The notes under the pieces were generated by a model. It did no database searches, had not been told where the DNA came from, and worked only from the letters and a program-made list of their open reading frames with translations. Positions 5,645 through 27,628 of a DNA stretch of 29,028 nucleotides are shown here, in pieces. This DNA is from Rhodospirillales bacterium. GTDB taxonomy: Bacteria > Pseudomonadota > Alphaproteobacteria > JAREAF01. The DNA lies in the NCBI GenBank assembly GCA_029240475.1, contig JAREAF010000001.1:1-29028 (forward strand). The letters run 5' to 3'. The first letter of the stretch is position 1. Each line of letters starts with the position of its first letter. A program made the translations under genes and the position numbers.

Positions 5645-7774
5645 ATGGTGAGCGAGACTGTGGTATTCGGCGAGCAAGCCAAGGCGCTCGCCAAGCGGGA
5701 TTCGGTCGACGAGCTGCTTCAAAGGATCAGGGTCCTGGAGCGCGCGGTGGCCGAATCGCGCGAGAGCGAGCGTCGCTATCGCGGCTTGGTCGAATCCGGG
5801 CGCGACATGATTGTGCGGATCGACACCGACTTCCGCTTCACCTTCGCCAACGACGCATGCTGCCGGACATTTGGCCGGCGGCGAGAAGACCTGATCGGGA
5901 CCCACATGTTCCCGGTCGTTTTCCCCGACGACCTTCCGAACACGATCACCGCGCTCAAGGCCCTTTCGGAGCCCCCGCATCGGACCAGCACCCTGGAGCG
6001 CAACATCACGTCGGAAGGCATCCGCTGGATTGCGTGGGAGGCCTGCGCCATCCTCGACGACGAAGGACGCGTGCTCGAATATCAGGGGATCGGGCGCGAC
6101 GTCACCGAGTTCCGCAGGCTCGAGCAGGAGCTGTTCCGGGCGAAGAACGAGCTCGAGCAGCGGGTGCGCGAGCGCACCGCGCAGCTGGAGGAGGCACTGA
6201 GCGAGCGCGCCCGCATCGCCGATGAGCTGGAGCGTCATAACCGAAGAATCCGCGCCCTCGAGCAGACCATCCCGGTCGGCATCTTCGAATCCGACACGGT
6301 TGGGCGCGTCATCTATTCCAATGCCGGGCTGATGGACCTGACCGGCTACACCGAGGAGCAGCTGAGCGGCTACGGCTGGCGGATCATGATTGCGCCCGAA
6401 GGAGCCGACAAGGTCTTCCTTGGCTGGCAGCGCGCGGTGCAGGAGCATCAGCCCTATTTCGAGGAGGTCCAGATCCGCACCCCGGACGGGAAGCACAAAT
6501 GGGTCCTGGTCCAGGCTGCGCCGATGTTCGGTTCGGATGGGGTCTTCCGCGGACATGTCGGGACCGTCACCGACATCACGCACCAGAAGACGGTTCAAGA
6601 CGCGCTGCGCGCCGGCGAAAAGCAGCTGCGGCAGGCCAAGGAGGAGGCCGAACGCGCCGATCTCGCCAAGTCGAAGTTCCTCGCCGCCGCCAGCCACGAT
6701 CTGCGGCAGCCCTTGCAGGCCGCCAATCTGTTCATGGCGGTGCTGCAGAACCGCGTGAACGAGGAGGAGCGACGCTTCGTCCTGGACAAGCTGCAGCAGT
6801 CCTTGAGCGCGCTGGAAAGCCTGCTCAACGCGCTGCTTGACGTCTCAAAGCTGGAGGCGGGCGTAAGCCAGCCCTCCCCGTCGATCTTTCCGGTGGGCGA
6901 GCTTTTCATCCAGCTCGCCAGCGAGTTCGCCCCGCGCGCGGCAGAGCGGCGCCTGCGCTTCCGGGTGGTGCCGGCTTCGGTCTATCTGCGCACCGACCGG
7001 ACGTTCCTGGAACGCATCCTGCGCAACTTGCTCTCCAACGCGCTCGCTTACACCGAGCAGGGCGGAATACTCCTCGGCGCGCGCCGGCGCGGCCGGCATC
7101 TGCGCATCGAGGTCTGGGATACTGGCATCGGCATTCCGGCGGACAAGCTGGAGGAAATCTTCGAGGATTTCAGCCAGCTCGGCAACGAGCACCGGGACCG
7201 CGATCGCGGCCTGGGCCTCGGCCTCGCCATCGTCAAGCGCATCGCCAAGCTGCTCGACAGCCGGGTCACCGTTCGCTCCAGGCCCGGAAAGGGCTCCGTC
7301 TTCGCCTGCGACATCCCCCTGGCGCACCCAGCGCCCCAAGCTGCGCCAGCCGCCGACGAGCCCGGCCATGCGCCCTCGGAAGGGCCAGGCAGGCTGATAG
7401 CCGTCATCGATGATGAGGTGAGCGTCCGCGAGGGCCTCGCCCTGCTGCTGTCGGACTGGTGACATGTGCCCGTCGTGGGCTCGACGACCGGCGAGGTCAT
7501 GGACCAGCTTGCCGAGCTCGGCCTGGCGCCGGACCTCATCATTGCGGACTATCAGCTGGCGGGAGGGCGCACCGGGGCCGAAGCGATCGAGGAGATCCGG
7601 CGGCAATGCGGACGAAATCTGCCGGCCATCGTGCTGACCGGCGATACCGCGCCCGAGCATCTCGGCGCGGCGCGGCGGAAGGGCTACATCCTTCTGCACA
7701 AACCCATCGGGCAGGAACATTTGCGGCTTGTGCTGGGTTCATTGCTCGAGGGCAAAGGTGCAGCTCGGACCTGA
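5645..7774 (+). pseudogene. PAS-PAS hybrid histidine kinase (HisKA-HATPase-REC) interrupted by an in-frame TGA at 7460-7462
   Basis: ORF 5645-7462 has two PAS/PAC regions, H-box AASHDLRQPL, N-box NLLSNAL, DTGIGI and GLGLGL boxes and the start of REC (IAVIDDE...LLSDW). The same frame resumes immediately (HVPVVG...PDLIIADYQL...VLTGD...LLHKPI) to TGA 7774. A true nonsense allele, a split gene and a sequencing error cannot be told apart here. Confidence 0.75.
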
Positions 7775-9203
7775 TTATCTGGGGGTTCAAATCGGAACGG
7801 ACGGGCCGCGCAGCACCGCCGCGACGCGTGCCGCCTTGCGCCTGGAATCGGCGCTGTTCTGGACGGTCTTGGGCACCCTTGCGGCCATGCCACTGCCGTT
7901 CGGCAGCGCATGGCCTTGGGCCTGGAGCCTCGCCGCCGTCCTGATCGGGCTGGTTCTGCTGACCTACGGGCTGGGTCTGGTCTTCACCGAGGCGAGACTT
8001 GCCCTGCCGATGCGGCGGCTGCGCGTTCCCCTGCTGCTGCTGTCCTTTCCGGTCCTCTGGGCGTTCCTGCAGGCGACGCCGCTGGGCGGCTCGGATCTGG
8101 CCCACCCCATCTGGTCGGCCGGCGGGGAGGCGCTGGGCCGGCCCGTTTCCGGCAAGATCAGCGTCGACACCCACGCGACGGGCACCTCGGTGATGCGCCT
8201 CTTCCTCTATGTCGGGGTGTTCTTCCTGGCCGTTCAACTCTGTCGAAGCGCCGACCGCGCCTTCTTCGCCCTGAACGCCATCGTGGCGATCGGCGCGGCC
8301 TATGGCCTGTACGGAATCATCGCGTATCTGCTCATGCCCGAGCAGCTCGCCTGGCTGCCGCGTACGAGCCCTCGGGGCGACCTGTCCGCAGCCTTCCTCG
8401 ACGGGATTCCGTACGCCACATTCGCCTCCCTTGGGCTGATCGCGGCAATCGCTCTTGTGGCCAAGCTGGTGCACCGGCCGGCTGTCGGGAGCGGCAGCAG
8501 AAAAGCGGTTCTCTCCAACCTTGCGCGCATTCTTGGGGCGAAAGGCTGGGCCCCCGCGGGGGCCGTCCTGGCGCTCGCAGCCGCGACGCTGCTGACCCAT
8601 TCCCGCGCCGGGCTGATCGCGACCGGGATCGGCGTGGTCGTGCTCCTTTTCTGCCTGCTCAGCGCCACGCGGCTGAACCGGTTCGGGCGGAGCGCCCTGG
8701 CCGCGCTGGTGGTCGGCGGCATGCTCCTGACGGTGCATCTGGCGAGCGAAACGGCTCTGGAGGAGGGCGCGGCCGCTGACGCTTCGCCCGGCCAGCAGAG
8801 AGCCGCCCTCAACGCCCTGGTGTGGCAGGGCATCACCGATTCCCCCCTGCTCGGCCATGGCTATGGCGCCTTCGAATCGGCGTTCCAGGGCTACGGCGAC
8901 GGCACGGTCCAGGGCTACGCGCCCAACGCGCACAACGACTATATGGAGCTGGCCTTCGATCTGGGCCTGCCGGCCGCCGGCCTGCTGCTGCTCGCGATAG
9001 GCTCCGTGGCGCTGCGCTGCCTCATCGGCGTCTACGACCGCCGGCGCGACATCGTTTATCCCGCGCTGGCGGTCGCTGCGACCTCGGTCGCCGCCGCCCA
9101 GGCGCTGACGGACTTCAGCCTGCAGGTTCCGGCGACCGCCGCGCTGCTGGCCTTCATCCTGGGCCTAGGCTACAGCCAATCCTGGACCTCTTCGGAGGGC
9201 TGA
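7758..9203 (+). CDS. O-antigen ligase (Wzy_C) family membrane protein
   Basis: Many hydrophobic segments, PLPFGSAWPWAW, LTHSRAG, and GHGYGAF...AHNDYMELAFDLGLP; next to wzc. Start uncertain (GTG 7758 chosen; ORF track begins at 7728). Confidence 0.85.
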   Translation: MQLGPDYLGVQIGTDGPRSTAATRAALRLESALFWTVLGTLAAMPLPFGSAWPWAWSLAAVLIGLVLLTYGLGLVFTEARLALPMRRLRVPLLLLSFPVLWAFLQATPLGGSDLAHPIWSAGGEALGRPVSGKISVDTHATGTSVMRLFLYVGVFFLAVQLCRSADRAFFALNAIVAIGAAYGLYGIIAYLLMPEQLAWLPRTSPRGDLSAAFLDGIPYATFASLGLIAAIALVAKLVHRPAVGSGSRKAVLSNLARILGAKGWAPAGAVLALAAATLLTHSRAGLIATGIGVVVLLFCLLSATRLNRFGRSALAALVVGGMLLTVHLASETALEEGAAADASPGQQRAALNALVWQGITDSPLLGHGYGAFESAFQGYGDGTVQGYAPNAHNDYMELAFDLGLPAAGLLLLAIGSVALRCLIGVYDRRRDIVYPALAVAATSVAAAQALTDFSLQVPATAALLAFILGLGYSQSWTSSEG

Positions 9204-14229: not shown

Positions 14230-14255
14230 GGAACATGGACGGATCAGCAAACGTT
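14230..14255 (+). promoter_or_regulatory. EcfG-type promoter upstream of a small ORF and manC
   Basis: Perfect GGAAC-N17-CGTT ending 20 nt before ATG 14276. Confidence 0.72.
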
Positions 14256-17162: not shown

Positions 17163-17375
17163 TCAGCCCTCGTTCAAGGTGAAGCCGATCCGCAGCACCA
17201 CCTGGAAGTGAGCGACCTCGCCGCCTTCGATGTGGCCGCGCATCTCCTTGACCTCGAACCAGCGCAGATTCTCAAGAGTCTCCGAGGCGCGCCCGACACC
17301 CTTGCGGATGGCGTCCTCGACGCTCTCGGACGAGGATGAGGCAAGCTCAATGATCTTGTAGACGTGGTCGTCCAT
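17163..17375 (-). CDS. Dodecin (flavin-binding dodecamer), 70 aa
   Basis: [19 protein letters not shown]...[29 protein letters not shown]; GAAGGGGA RBS upstream. Confidence 0.92.
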
Positions 17376-17476: not shown

Positions 17477-17493
17477 CGCAACTTTTTCGCCAA
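17477..17493 (-). promoter_or_regulatory. Candidate sigma-54 -24/-12 promoter facing dodecin
   Basis: TTGGCGAAAAAGTTGCG: GG and GC separated by exactly 10 nt with TT before GC; deviates from TGGCAC at two positions. Confidence 0.4.
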
Positions 17494-17535
17494 TTCAGCT
17501 GTTTTCCGACACTCCGATCTCTGGGGGCGGTGCGA

Positions 17536-18674: not shown

Positions 18675-19781
18675 ATGATCTTCGCCTATTTCGCCCATTC
18701 GATCTCGTCGGACTGGAACAACGGGAACGCGCATTTCCAGCGCGGCGTCTTGCGCGAGCTGGTCCGCGCCGGTCATGCGGTGCGCGCCTTCGAGCCGGCC
18801 GACGGCTGGAGCAGGTCGAATCTCATCGCCGAGCAGGGCGAGGCGGCGCTGGAGCGCTTCGCCGCCAGCTTCCCCGAGCTATCGCCGATCGCATACGAGC
18901 CGGCGGCGCTGGATCTCGATCGCGCCCTCGACGGCGTCGATGTCGTCGTCGTGCATGAATGGAACCCGCCCGAGCTGGTCGCAGCCCTGGGGCAGAAGCG
19001 CCTGCGGGGCGGCCGCTTCAAGCTGCTCTTCCACGACACCCATCACCGGTCCGTCAGCGATCCGAAGGCGATCTCGGGCTACGACCTCGAAGGCTATGAC
19101 GGCGTGCTCGCCTTCGGGGAAGCCATTCGCGAGCGCTATCTCGCGCGCGGTTGGGCGCGCCGGGTATGGACCTGGCACGAGGCGGCCGACACGCGCCTGT
19201 TCCGGCCGATCGTCTCCCAGGAGCGATGGGGCGATGTCGTATGGATCGGCAACTGGGGCGATGACGAGCGCACGCGCGAGCTGCAGGAATTCTTCCTCGA
19301 GCCGGTCAAGGCGCTGCGGCTGCGGGCCCAGGTCCGCGGCGTGCGCTTCCCGCCCGAGGCGCTGGCCTCGCTCTCTCATGCCGGCGCGCGCTATGGCGGA
19401 TGGGTGGCCAATGCCGCGGTGCCCGATCTCTTCGCCCGCTTTCCGCTAACGGTGCACATCCCGCGGCGGCCCTACCGCGAAGCCCTTCCGGGCATTCCCA
19501 CGATCCGCGTCTTCGAGGCGCTGGCCTGCGGCATCCCGCTCATCTCGGCGCCCTGGGACGATGTGGAGCGCCTGTTCCGAGCCGAGGATTATCTCCTGGC
19601 CGCCGATGGGCTGGCGATGCAGCGGATGATGCGCGACCTGCTCTGCGACCGCCATCTGGCCGCCAGGTTCGCCAAGAACGGGCTGGAAACGATCCGCACC
19701 CGGCATACCTGCCGCCACCGGGCCGAGCAACTCTTGGCGATCTGCGCCGAACTGGACCTGCCGGAACGTTCAGCCGCCTGA
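18675..19781 (+). CDS. CgeB-family glycosyltransferase
   Basis: MIFAYFAHSISSDWNNGNAHFQRG, FHDTHHR, WIGNWGDDER, IRVFEALACGIPLISAPW; start at ATG 18675, 23 nt after the epimerase stop. Confidence 0.85.
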   Translation: MIFAYFAHSISSDWNNGNAHFQRGVLRELVRAGHAVRAFEPADGWSRSNLIAEQGEAALERFAASFPELSPIAYEPAALDLDRALDGVDVVVVHEWNPPELVAALGQKRLRGGRFKLLFHDTHHRSVSDPKAISGYDLEGYDGVLAFGEAIRERYLARGWARRVWTWHEAADTRLFRPIVSQERWGDVVWIGNWGDDERTRELQEFFLEPVKALRLRAQVRGVRFPPEALASLSHAGARYGGWVANAAVPDLFARFPLTVHIPRRPYREALPGIPTIRVFEALACGIPLISAPWDDVERLFRAEDYLLAADGLAMQRMMRDLLCDRHLAARFAKNGLETIRTRHTCRHRAEQLLAICAELDLPERSAA

Positions 19782-19819
19782 CTGGACCGCCTGACCGGAT
19801 TGAAGGCGCAAAATGCCGA

Positions 19820-19854
19820 GGGGGCGGAGCGATCCGAAGGATCGTCCGCCTCCC
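19820..19854. terminator. GC-rich hairpin between convergent genes, probable terminator
   Basis: GGGGGCGGA-G-CGATCC-GAA-GGATCG-TCCGCCTCCC; long stem with one bulge and only a weak U-tract. Confidence 0.5.
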
Positions 19855-19874
19855 GACATTCTGATCGGCCGACC

Positions 19875-20210
19875 TTACTGAGTCGTGGTGGTGGTCGTGC
19901 CGGTGGTCCCGGTGGTCCCAGTAGTCCCGGTGGTGCCGGTCGTCCCGGTGTCGCCGCCGGTCGTGCCGGTCGTGCCGGTGCCGGTGTCCGTCGTCGTGGT
20001 CGTCGTTCCGGTCGCACCGGTGGTCGTGTCGGTGGTCGTGCCAGTGGTGCCGGTGGTGGTGTTGGTGGTCGTGCCGGTCGTGCCTGTGTCGGTTGCACCG
20101 GTATTCTCGGCCGTGGTGTCGTTGTCGCCACAGGCCGCGAGCGGTCCCGCGACCGCCACGATCACGGCGGTGAGCAGCGACAACCGGCGCAGCGTTTCGA
20201 ATTTGGCCAA
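19875..20210 (-). CDS. Thr/Gly-rich low-complexity lipoprotein (111 aa)
   Basis: TTG start at 20210 with GGAGG RBS; signal MAKFETLRRLSLLTAVIVAVAGPLAA-C (lipobox LAAC); mature 85 aa almost entirely T/G/D. Confidence 0.8.
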   Translation of the reverse strand: MAKFETLRRLSLLTAVIVAVAGPLAACGDNDTTAENTGATDTGTTGTTTNTTTGTTGTTTDTTTGATGTTTTTTDTGTGTTGTTGGDTGTTGTTGTTGTTGTTGTTTTTTQ

Positions 20211-20258
20211 ACTACCCTCCTTGGGTCTGTTGGGTCGTCTATTGGCCCCCCGCGCGTG

Positions 20259-20283
20259 AACACGGGGCAACATTCGCAGTTGC
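20259..20283 (-). promoter_or_regulatory. EcfG-like promoter for the Thr-rich lipoprotein
   Basis: GCAAC-N16-TGTT ending 48 nt upstream of the TTG; core AAC/GTT and spacing kept, two mismatches. Confidence 0.45.
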
Positions 20284-20500
20284 GCGTGGGCAGGTGCCTT
20301 AATGCCGTCACAGTCGGCTTGCGCCGAGATGGTCTTGGTGAACGGGCGGCGGCTTAGATCAGGAGGGGCGGCTTATATACCCTTGGGTCTGTGACCGGGC
20401 GCGCCGGCTGCGATATGATTAGCGGCAAATCATCACATCCGGGCGGCTGCGGTTTCAGGTCCAGGCTGCGGCGCCTGAGACTCAAGGATCCAGCCCTGTC

Positions 20501-21304
20501 ATGAACGATCTCTCTCACGAAATCGCCCGACACCTGCCGTTCCTGCGCCGCTACGCGCGCGCCCTGACCGGGTCTCAGGAGCGGGGCGACCGTTACGTGC
20601 GGGTCTGCCTTGAGACCATCCTGGAGGAACCGGGGCGGATCGCGCCGGAAGAAGACCCCCGGCTCCAGCTGTACAGCGTTTTCCATGACGTATGGGCCGT
20701 GGTGCAATCGGTCGCTCCGGAGGATGAGGGCGAGGCCGGCGGTTCGGGCGGCGACAGTCTGCAGCAAGGCTTGGCGGCGTTGCCCGCCATCGAGCGGCAG
20801 GTGCTCCTGCTGATCTCGCTCGAGGGCTTCTCCTACGAGGAGACGGCGCAGATCCTGGGGCTCGAGCGCGACGAGGTGCGGCTGCTGCTGCACGCCGCGC
20901 AGGAGGAGATGCAGCGCCAGACGGCCGCTTCGGTGCTGATCATCGAAGACGAGCAGCTGATCGCCATGGACCTGGCGCGCATCGTCGAGGAGATGGGCCA
21001 CCGCTTGTGCGGCACCGCCGCGCGCCAGCAGGAGGCGATCGAGCTCGCCGAGCGGACCCGGCCCGGCCTGGTGCTGGCCGACATACAGCTGCAGAACGGC
21101 GACAACGGCATCCAGACCGTCCGCGAGATCCTGCGGCGGATCGACGCGCCCGTGATCTTCGTCACCGGCTTTCCCGAACGGCTCCTCACCGGCGAAGCGC
21201 TCGAGCCGGCCTTCGTCATCACCAAGCCATTCAACCCGCAGACCCTGAAGACGGCGATCGCGCAGGCGCTCTCGCTCTCGCGCGATCCGGCCCGACAGAG
21301 GTAG
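20501..21304 (+). CDS. phyR: PhyR anti-anti-sigma response regulator of the general stress response
   Basis: N-terminal sigma-like domain HLPFLRRYARALTGSQERGD...RQVLLLISLEGFS, C-terminal REC VLIIEDE...LVLADIQL...VIFVTGFPERLLTG...ITKPF. Confidence 0.95.
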   Translation: MNDLSHEIARHLPFLRRYARALTGSQERGDRYVRVCLETILEEPGRIAPEEDPRLQLYSVFHDVWAVVQSVAPEDEGEAGGSGGDSLQQGLAALPAIERQVLLLISLEGFSYEETAQILGLERDEVRLLLHAAQEEMQRQTAASVLIIEDEQLIAMDLARIVEEMGHRLCGTAARQQEAIELAERTRPGLVLADIQLQNGDNGIQTVREILRRIDAPVIFVTGFPERLLTGEALEPAFVITKPFNPQTLKTAIAQALSLSRDPARQR

Positions 21305-21340
21305 CCTCGCGGAGCTCTTCGCTTCCGAGGGTCCCGCCTG

Positions 21341-21682
21341 GTGTCGACCGACGATCGGCTGCCCACCGAGATCTGGGTCAAGGCGCATCTGCGGCGCTGC
21401 TACGCGGAGGGCCTGCCCGCGACCATCCTGCGCCGCGGCGATGCGACCGGCGGAATGGTGCTGCTCAAGATCAACCGCCTGGAGCTGGGCTGCGCGGTGC
21501 TGACCCAGACGCGCGACCTGGCGGGCCGGCCCGCCTGGCTCGCCGCGCAGGGCGGCGCCCTCCTGCCCGAAGCGGATGCGGACGCCTACATAGAACGGGC
21601 GGTCAAGCGCGATCCGGACCTGTGGGTGGTCGAGGTCGAGAGTCGCAGCGGCGAGCACCCGTTCGAGGGGCGCGTTCTCTGA
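21341..21682 (+). CDS. DUF1491-family protein
   Basis: RLPTEIWVKAHLRR...ILRRGDATGG...YIERAVKRDPDLWVVEVES. Confidence 0.85.
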   Translation: MSTDDRLPTEIWVKAHLRRCYAEGLPATILRRGDATGGMVLLKINRLELGCAVLTQTRDLAGRPAWLAAQGGALLPEADADAYIERAVKRDPDLWVVEVESRSGEHPFEGRVL

Positions 21683-27603: not shown

Positions 27604-27628
27604 GGAACTCGGGACAGTTCATGGCGTT
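27604..27628 (+). promoter_or_regulatory. EcfG-type promoter for the GYGQ-repeat protein
   Basis: Perfect GGAAC-N16-CGTT ending 49 nt upstream of ATG 27678. Confidence 0.8.

Follow-up and report, generated by a model that had tools for sequence, protein, structure and literature searches.

A conserved threonine-rich lipoprotein chain, predicted to be disordered, behind a putative general stress promoter in an uncultured soil alphaproteobacterial lineage

Lipoproteins that are small and induced by stress are already known, as are extracytoplasmic disordered regions rich in Ser/Thr and disordered linkers of lipoproteins. Mycobacterial lipoproteins have Thr-rich O-mannosylated linkers, and hydrophilins and protectants of the late embryogenesis abundant (LEA) type are disordered, stress-induced proteins with more than 6% Gly and a hydrophilicity index above 1. 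Further systems for comparison are ice-binding proteins rich in Thr and collagen-like (G-x-T)n stalks, of which BclA is an example. Here we describe a gene in a 29,028-nucleotide stretch of a Rhodospirillales bacterium (assembly GCA_029240475.1, contig JAREAF010000001.1, positions 1 to 29,028), which as a whole is called the window. The gene occupies 19875-20210 on the minus strand and encodes a lipoprotein-type precursor with an extremely Thr-rich chain. What appears to be new is a conserved, strongly expressed lipoprotein that consists only of such a chain and would be under the general stress sigma factor.

The closest described systems are the entericidins EcnA/EcnB, OsmB of E. coli and the entericidin-like and glycine-zipper lipoproteins of alphaproteobacterial EcfG regulons. 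The Thr-rich lipoprotein resembles them in its precursor of about 100 aa, its lipobox, the absence of an enzymatic domain and its putative stress-sigma promoter. The window's own assembly (G000; 3.77 Mb, 82% complete, 68% G+C) also encodes Entericidin-like and Gly-zipper lipoproteins whose genes follow the same motif, and acidic paralogues with a faint resemblance to Entericidin have the head motif of the chain as well. Unlike entericidins and OsmB, the Thr-rich lipoprotein has no hidden Markov model (HMM) match, its mature chain is twice as long, and Thr makes up 45-60% of it in most orthologues (30% in G001, which with G002 is a genome of the same genus). Its chain is predicted to be disordered, whereas the small stress lipoproteins have an amphipathic helix or a Gly zipper.

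The streptococcal Ser/Thr-rich disordered regions of PrsA, PBP1a and other membrane proteins (PMC12041528) are similarly membrane-tethered and extracytoplasmic and have a stress-related role, as do the mycobacterial linkers. Both the streptococcal regions and the mycobacterial linkers are tails or linkers of folded proteins and were shown to be glycosylated (by GtrB/GT-C or Pmt enzymes), whereas here the whole mature protein is predicted to be the disordered region, the host is Gram-negative and no GT-C enzyme was found in its genome. As in the linkers of Gram-negative outer-membrane lipoproteins (bioRxiv 10.1101/2021.01.05.425367), a flexible low-complexity stretch comes right after the Cys predicted to be acylated, but those linkers lead to a folded domain and the Thr-rich lipoprotein ends at TTQ without one. 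Its likeness to hydrophilins and LEA proteins lies in 22% Gly, predicted disorder, inferred stress induction, no Trp and a sole Cys (Cys27), and also in an OtsA-type gene, judged from its N-terminal sequence and not confirmed by HMM, behind the same promoter motif. It differs from them in that it is predicted to be exported and lipid-anchored rather than cytosolic, in its grand average of hydropathy (GRAVY) of −0.87 and in being Thr-dominated rather than charged-rich. High Thr and short Gly-x-x runs recall ice-binding proteins and BclA stalks, but the chain has no conserved register, at most 7 triplets in a row, no predicted fold and no C-terminal trimerising domain.

The gene, its control elements and the divergent neighbour to which the promoter is linked are as follows. 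Handles beginning with L denote the loci compared, mostly metagenome contigs.

19875-20210, minus strand: lipoprotein gene, TTG at 20210, 111 codons, TAA at 19877-19875
20133..20210, minus strand: TTG start and predicted 26-aa lipoprotein signal peptide, with Lys/Arg n-region, hydrophobic core and L-A-A before Cys27
19878..20132, minus strand: predicted mature chain of 85 aa, with conserved head CGDNDTTAENTG, Thr/Gly/Asp low-complexity body and conserved C-terminal TTQ
19893..19979, minus strand: degenerate 9-bp (Gly-Thr-Thr) tandem array, including six consecutive GTT units at 19893-19946
19875..19877, minus strand: TAA stop codon
20222-20215, minus strand: ribosome-binding site AAGGAGGG before the TTG, kept in all loci
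20211..20251, minus strand: 5' untranslated region (UTR), containing a conserved GGGGGCCAAT element and the ribosome-binding site AAGGAGGG
20279..20283, minus strand: −35 element GCAAC of a putative EcfG-type promoter (extracytoplasmic function sigma factor), kept in 5 phyR-linked loci
20259..20262, minus strand: −10 element TGTT, 16 nt after the −35 element; CGTT in L021, L022 and a distant clade of orthologues
20501..21304, plus strand: phyR, anti-anti-sigma response regulator of the general stress response (Pfam PhyR_sigma2, PhyR_sigma-like, Response_reg)

Translation of 19875-20210 gave the lipobox LAA-C, the 85-aa mature chain and the 51 Thr residues that a sequence-only reading of this DNA had reported. 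The composition count (Thr 51 or 60%, Gly 19, Asp 6, Asn 3, Ala 3 and one each of Cys, Glu and Gln) also bore out its description of the rest as mostly Gly and Asp, lacking aromatic, basic and large hydrophobic residues, with six GTT units near the end, where the chain closes with (GTT)x6 and then TTTTQ. The mature chain has a calculated mass of 7.9 kDa, an isoelectric point of 4.05 and the GRAVY given above. Thr accounts for 4.6% of residues genome-wide (long open reading frames (ORFs) of G000). A six-frame scan of the 3.77-Mb assembly returned two ORFs with at least 24 Thr per 60 aa, and the lipoprotein reached 41/60. The sole other extreme case encodes a Sec-exported DUF4142 protein (C191:2442-3152, L047), whose first ~70 mature residues form a Thr/Gly/Asp/Gln low-complexity linker.

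The Thr codons are mixed (ACC 31, ACG 15, ACT 4, ACA 1), from which selection at the protein level had been proposed. Codon choice for Thr and Gly matches that of the genome (ACC 60% versus 56%, ACG 30% versus 38%), so the tract behaves as translated sequence and not as a pure DNA repeat. That part of the proposal stands. However, the repeat pattern indicates that slippage or recombination acts on the tract as well, besides protein-level constraint. Tandem Repeats Finder reported a period of 9, 9.3 copies and 77% matches in the tail DNA. RNA contigs of the window population carry in-frame 3-nt and 12-nt deletions at 19952/19953, together with one fixed change at 20034 that is synonymous (third codon position, ACC to ACG). 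In the distant clade the proteins measure 100, 102, 103, 105 and 106 aa, varying by whole Gly-Thr-Thr units, and share the ending STTQ.

With a genomic G+C content of 68%, every frame is open at this locus, and third-position G+C content (GC3) is high in the antisense Val/Pro frame as well. Composition alone is therefore insufficient to decide the frame. Codons 2-38 are under purifying selection, with ratios of nonsynonymous to synonymous substitution (dN/dS) mostly about 0.15-0.3 among orthologues, and all natural length variants of the gene are multiples of 3 nt, so that the frame is kept. The ribosome-binding site, TTG, signal peptide, lipobox, head motif (consensus C-G-D/E-N-D/E-T-T-A-E-N/K-T-G) and C-terminal TTQ are kept in G001, in two metagenome contigs from the protein search and in 14 further metagenome loci. 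The minus-strand ORF 19875-20210 is a real gene and its frame is correct. The plus-strand Val/Pro-rich shadow ORF at 19885-20259, with its high GC3, was rejected, as it has neither a ribosome-binding site nor conserved features. A longer ATG start at 20273 was likewise rejected, as the mapped 5' end of the RNA falls downstream of it.

The gene is transcribed in nature. Its 31-mers were present in 14 metatranscriptome runs of soil, rhizosphere, root and freshwater, each from a different study, and the wider locus was found in 20 DNA runs. Contigs of four RNA runs were mapped onto 19300-21400. They measure 215-312 nt, carry 0-1 mismatches (at least 99% identity), span 19924-20251 and have assembler depths of 2-61. 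In all four runs there was zero cover at 19300-19867 (transferase gene and intergenic hairpin, both listed below) and at 20294-20506 (promoter and phyR leader). As DNA contamination would cover the flanks equally, the contigs represent RNA of a short monocistronic unit. The phyR pieces in these runs were 35-110-nt matches with 1-8 mismatches each, most of them continuing into unlike sequence, and for these reasons we assign them to other organisms. In these four runs the lipoprotein RNA was far more abundant than that of the neighbouring genes. The contigs end upstream at 20237 (followed by Illumina adapter), 20239, 20244 and 20251, and none enters the promoter. Position 20251, 8 nt beyond the −10 element, coincides with the initial G of a conserved GGGGGGCCAAT and matches the 5' end that the promoter predicts.

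The promoter was assessed by conservation and by motif counts. The lipoprotein gene is divergent from phyR in five loci (the window, G001, L021, L022 and L032). An intergenic alignment showed GCAAC-N16/17-(C/T)GTT conserved about 40-50 nt before the TTG, with a diverged spacer. The L021 and L022 promoters read GCAAC-N16-CGTT. The distant clade has another genomic context and no phyR on its contigs, yet it carries a perfect GGAAC-N16-CGTT in the same place. Motifs were counted in the part of the G000 assembly not masked as coding, and spacers of 10-24 were compared. GCAAC..CGTT occurred 25 times at spacer 16, 27 times at spacer 17 and about 9 times at other spacers; the corresponding counts were 17, 12 and about 4 for GCAAC..TGTT, and 18, 11 and about 8 for GGAAC..CGTT, which by itself showed no excess in the raw whole-genome count. 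Altogether 139 unmasked occurrences were found at spacers 16-17, about 50-60 above background. These counts point to G(C/G)AAC-N16/17-(C/T)GTT as the stress promoter of the lineage, with GCAAC, the most enriched −35 element, preferred over GGAAC.

In Sphingomonas melonis the experimentally defined EcfG regulon includes Ku and PRC-barrel genes (PMC6599016), and GCAAC and TGTT variants occur among genes that are experimentally EcfG-dependent (PMC6599016). In G000 the genes behind the motifs include those for Dodecin (in the window, 17163-17375), an Entericidin-like lipoprotein, DUF3309, Pmp3, CBS, Ku, DUF1206, a Gly-zipper lipoprotein, PRC-barrel and DUF326. OtsA-like (trehalose-synthase-like) and LigD-like genes also lie behind the motif; both were judged from N-terminal sequence and are not HMM-confirmed. 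The enrichment at spacers 16/17, together with the S. melonis variants, makes the window's GCAAC-N16-TGTT a credible EcfG-type promoter. Together, motif, synteny and mapped 5' end point to EcfG-dependent transcription. Such control by the general stress response gives the best indication of what the gene does. We also noted a 296-aa secreted protein (C200:3225-4112, L048:126-1013) behind a perfect GGAAC-N16-CGTT; it has a Gly/Thr/Ser-rich N-terminal region and no Pfam match.

Eighteen loci were found beyond the window, mostly on soil and rhizosphere metagenome contigs. Across the orthologues the Thr fraction ranges from 0.30 (G001) to 0.60 (window), Gly from 0.15 to 0.24 and length from 87 to 112 aa. 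The G001 orthologue has Ala, Glu, Asp and Ser in place of Thr. Aromatic residues occur nowhere in the family, and Lys plus Arg number 0-4. The stop position and the C-terminal TTQ are kept in all 18 other loci except L042. In that locus, L042:1051-1680 carries the same signal peptide and the initial ~35 residues of the Thr-rich chain, followed by a Germane-like domain whose match is sub-threshold (20.9 bits against a 23-bit cut-off). The fusion may be a genuine relative with a domain, or else an assembly chimera formed at the repeat. In G002, from whose assembly phyR is missing, a contig (C114:1-1107) ends 21 codons before the end of the transferase gene; this break fits an assembly gap caused by the Thr-repeat gene expected there.

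Outside these loci the family is scarce. Pfam gave no match for the lipoprotein or its orthologues, a profile search of PDB sequences and NCBIfam-style searches gave none, and the ESM Atlas returned unnamed clusters at 0.86-0.89 only, under the useful range. A profile search of 1.84 billion representative proteins found four family members at E <1e-10, together with sequences resembling the acidic paralogues. Among 185,579 species genomes, a scan found only a same-genus metagenome-assembled genome, a soil 'Alphaproteobacteria bacterium'. The window's GTDB order comprises three genomes in one genus. Given so few matches across the databases, we regard the family as a lineage-restricted orphan of one uncultured soil alphaproteobacterial lineage.

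Separate from the orthologues are acidic, Ala/Glu/Gly-repeat paralogues of 63-69 aa in G000 (C590:11632-11880, L030:1477-1677), G001 (C10, L029:1498-1689) and G002 (C332, L028:1495-1704). They have the same lipobox and the head C-D-x-N-x-S-T-A-E-K-V-G-E, end in AAQ, and in all three genomes adjoin a gene that resembles glyoxalase I by sequence.

The precursor is predicted to be a genuine lipoprotein-type one. Its signal peptide has an n-region with K3, R8 and R9, a core at residues 10-26 and L-A-A-C27, and the lipobox, which is common to all orthologues, satisfies the [LVI][ASTVI][GAS]C rule. The Pro at lipobox position −4 presumably breaks the strict PROSITE-type lipoprotein pattern. Lgt (PF01790, 9.6e-80) and LspA (PF01252, 1.9e-37) are encoded in G000. 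Outer-membrane sorting had been predicted from Gly at +2 under the E. coli rule. Residue +2 after the Cys is Gly in the window and Asp in the distant clade and the acidic paralogues, which makes this call unsafe, and the rule may be inapplicable to this lineage.

AlphaFold2 modelled only the signal-peptide helix (residues 3-24). The predicted local distance difference test (pLDDT) score was 49.8, with the mature chain below 50 throughout. The longest Gly-x-x run has 7 triplets, too few for a collagen-like (G-x-y)n stalk, and there are 30 overlapping T-x-T motifs. With 60% Thr and predicted disorder, the chain has the make-up of the Ser/Thr-dense disordered tracts of mucin-like proteins. The mature chain contains no binding pocket or catalytic residues. 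Because the composition can shift, the length is polymorphic and no fold is predicted, a bulk physical role is more plausible than Thr-specific chemistry.

A stress-promoter-driven, disordered lipoprotein encoded by a real gene is very probably what the window holds. We further propose that it is induced by general stress and acts as a tethered, disordered polyhydroxyl chain, an envelope brush or protectant, and we give this full reading a probability of about 0.5. Under stress, EcfG-RNA polymerase would start at the G(C/G)AAC-N16-(C/T)GTT promoter, about 41 nt before the TTG, and yield an abundant monocistronic lipoprotein mRNA. Sec would export the precursor, Lgt would acylate Cys27 and LspA would cleave. 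The product would be a 7.9-kDa acidic Thr/Gly/Asp chain without a fold, lipid-tethered to an envelope membrane. It would work physically and not catalytically, as a dense, flexible, hydroxyl-rich brush. Under drying, osmotic or comparable stress this layer would maintain hydration and spacing at the membrane surface or in the periplasm. Such a protein would in effect be an envelope-anchored relative of hydrophilin/LEA-type protectants, and its brush length could be tuned through gain and loss of Gly-Thr-Thr units. The EcfG dependence, the lipidation, the membrane that would hold the chain and the protective role are all inferred. A membrane-tethered brush had been suggested from the sequence, and it is the natural reading of a domain-free, acidic, Thr/Gly-rich lipoprotein-type chain.

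A bolder version, which we put forward only tentatively and consider doubtful, is a lipid-anchored 'protein polyol'. Here Thr hydroxyls and Gly hinges, EcfG-induced to very high levels, would replace water at the drying membrane surface as trehalose and LEA proteins do in the cytoplasm, and the Gly-Thr-Thr copy number would set the brush thickness.

Several observations weigh against the proposed stress-induced brush. The window's −10 element is TGTT rather than the consensus CGTT. In the G000 assembly ecfG was not located and nepR was not securely found; the best NepR-like ORF (C90:3148-3234, L023:1426-1707, minus strand) scored 17.3 bits, below cut-off, sits in a stretch of low G+C and has no sigma-factor gene beside it. 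The 82% completeness of the assembly is possibly the reason why the ecfG-nepR pair was not located. The mapped RNA runs were chosen for holding the gene, their contigs are strandless, and all of them break at 19924, the repeat start, so that the 3' end is not reached. The low pLDDT is a weak negative as to the order of the mature chain, owing to the shallow input alignment of five sequences. The Gly content of 22% is well within the range of hydrophilins, but the GRAVY of −0.87 misses their hydrophilicity index above 1. Finally, conservation of the head (TAENTG) and the tail (TTQ) hints at a specific interaction that a pure brush leaves unexplained.

The alternative that survives best, though we consider it unlikely, is a mucin-like glycolipoprotein, likewise stress-induced, in which a glycan coat on Thr gives hydration and protease resistance. 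Glycosylation would be carried out either by a cytoplasmic CgeB-family transferase and epimerase before export or by a periplasmic Wzy_C/PglL-type ligase. The Thr content of 60% suits this explanation, and so does the transferase gene, which is convergent with the lipoprotein gene in three loci (G000, L021 and L032). The orthologue poorest in Thr (30%) is that of G001, in which no transferase was found, the epimerase-transferase operon carries its own GCAAC-N17-TGTT motif, and the genome encodes two Wzy_C proteins. In streptococcal lipoproteins, Ser/Thr-rich extracytoplasmic disordered regions are O-glycosylated and thereby protected from proteolysis (PMC12041528).

However, the transferase family retains 60-65% identity between phyla (Azospirillum, Geminicoccaceae, Desulfuromonadales, Acidobacteria and Myxococcota), whereas the lipoprotein forms about four clusters among 1.84 billion proteins. 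A widespread enzyme beside a lineage-restricted lipoprotein indicates that the enzyme has another, general substrate. The two genes are convergent, without co-transcription, and the distant clade shows no transferase within up to 1.7 kb downstream. The G001 assembly, in which the transferase was not found, is 94% complete and keeps the lipoprotein, with Ala, Glu and Ser able to replace Thr. A PMT_2-type GT-C enzyme was searched for and none was found in the genome, and the window's Wzy_C protein (7728-9203) belongs to a Wzc/EpsL-type polysaccharide cluster. The mature chain also lacks what we take to be the Ala/Pro context of PglL-type sites. Modification by local enzymes, as the sequence-only reading had envisaged, thus keeps the convergent transferase in its favour and is weakened by the wide range of that family, the failure to find the transferase in G001 and the setting of the Wzy_C gene.

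Less probable still is an entericidin-like small stress lipoprotein, in which the head (C-x-x-N-x-T-T-A-E-x-x-G) is functional on or in the membrane and the Thr tail is a tolerated expansion; it might pair with the acidic Ala/Glu/Gly-rich paralogue. The paralogues of G000, G001 and G002 share the lipobox and head with E values of about 7.5e-11 to 3e-9, and hhalign aligned 17 columns with a probability of 65% and E = 6e-5. The G000 paralogue has a perfect GGAAC-N16-CGTT motif, and the G001 orthologue is intermediate in composition. The paralogues score weakly against Entericidin EcnA/B (PF08085; 14.9-18.5 bits), but these matches fall under the 23.3-bit cut-off and are located in the repeat and not in the head. 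The Thr-rich protein itself has no match to PF08085 in Pfam, and its chain contains no amphipathic helix. Moreover, the Thr/Gly tail, TTQ and a Thr content of at least 45% are retained in three of four clades, which argues for selection on the tail.

It is very unlikely that the mature peptide has no function, whether as a linker-only remnant of a longer lipoprotein or because the abundant mRNA or the signal peptide is what matters. The Thr/Gly tract does serve as a linker in the exported DUF4142 protein on C191, and L042 joins the same N-terminus to a Germane-like domain. Against this, L042 may be an assembly chimera, and it is the only one of the 18 other loci that departs from the conserved stop position and TTQ. 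The frame is kept through many indels, the promoter and the ribosome-binding site are conserved in two genomic contexts, and expression is high.

An ice-binding or antifreeze lipoprotein that presents ordered Thr rows to ice, as had been suggested from the high Thr and to which the 30 overlapping T-x-T motifs and the short Gly-x-x runs reminiscent of polyproline-II antifreeze proteins would fit, can be set aside as highly improbable, since no fold is predicted (pLDDT <50, shallow alignment), no PDB relative was found, Gly-x-x triplets follow one another at most 7 times, the number and register of the repeats differ both between populations and inside them, Thr makes up only 30% of the G001 orthologue, and expression is seen in samples of temperate soil, rhizosphere, root, winery and freshwater.

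The remaining features of the locus are as follows.

18675..19781, plus strand: CgeB-family glycosyltransferase (Pfam Glyco_trans_1_2), convergent neighbour, context only
19809..19863: G+C-rich hairpin between the convergent lipoprotein and transferase genes, fold −40.7 kcal/mol, z = −3.3
17448-17424, minus strand: motif copy
17478-17503, plus strand: motif copy
12251-12226, minus strand: motif copy
14230-14255, plus strand: motif copy
27604-27628, plus strand: motif copy

By its Pfam domains the CgeB-family transferase is a soluble GT-B-type enzyme. Its start is probably at 18675, giving it the 368-aa length of its homologues. For the epimerase the probable start is a GTG near 17530 rather than 17473, because of the GCAAC-N17-TGTT motif at 17478-17503. 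An insertion of epimerase and transferase in G000 only was considered and rejected, as L021 and L032 have the same adjacency. The hairpin at 19809-19863, which is followed by UUUUG on the minus strand, is likely a shared terminator of the lipoprotein and transferase genes. It was found by folding; a strict canonical terminator scan called no terminator there.

In the 5' UTR, GGGGGCCAAT can pair with the start-codon region (GGCCAA with TTGGCC) and so enclose the ribosome-binding site; this region was examined in the window, L002, L021, L022, L032 and L033. Three loci have, in addition, an inner ACCC/GGGU stem that reaches the ribosome-binding site. The hairpin forms in most minimum-energy folds, but with z-scores of −1.1 to +1.1 and without covariation, and we claim nothing for it.

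Alphaproteobacterial general-stress regulons are rich in small exported proteins of unassigned role, and this lipoprotein is an extreme, clean case with no domain. Its promoter is kept in two genomic contexts, and the gene assembles from metatranscriptomes where its neighbours do not. The analysis also yields, as a by-product, a sequence-based definition of the stress promoter of an uncultured lineage and several dozen candidate regulon members. Were the chain glycosylated, this would be a sign that free-living Alphaproteobacteria have a route of protein O-glycosylation. If instead it shields membranes by physical means, the hydrophilin/LEA idea would extend to the Gram-negative envelope, with a short and easily synthesised peptide in hand. 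Should even the 'protein polyol' version hold, the gene would rank among the dominant in-situ transcripts of an uncultured soil alphaproteobacterial lineage and would offer a direct handle on soil-drying survival.

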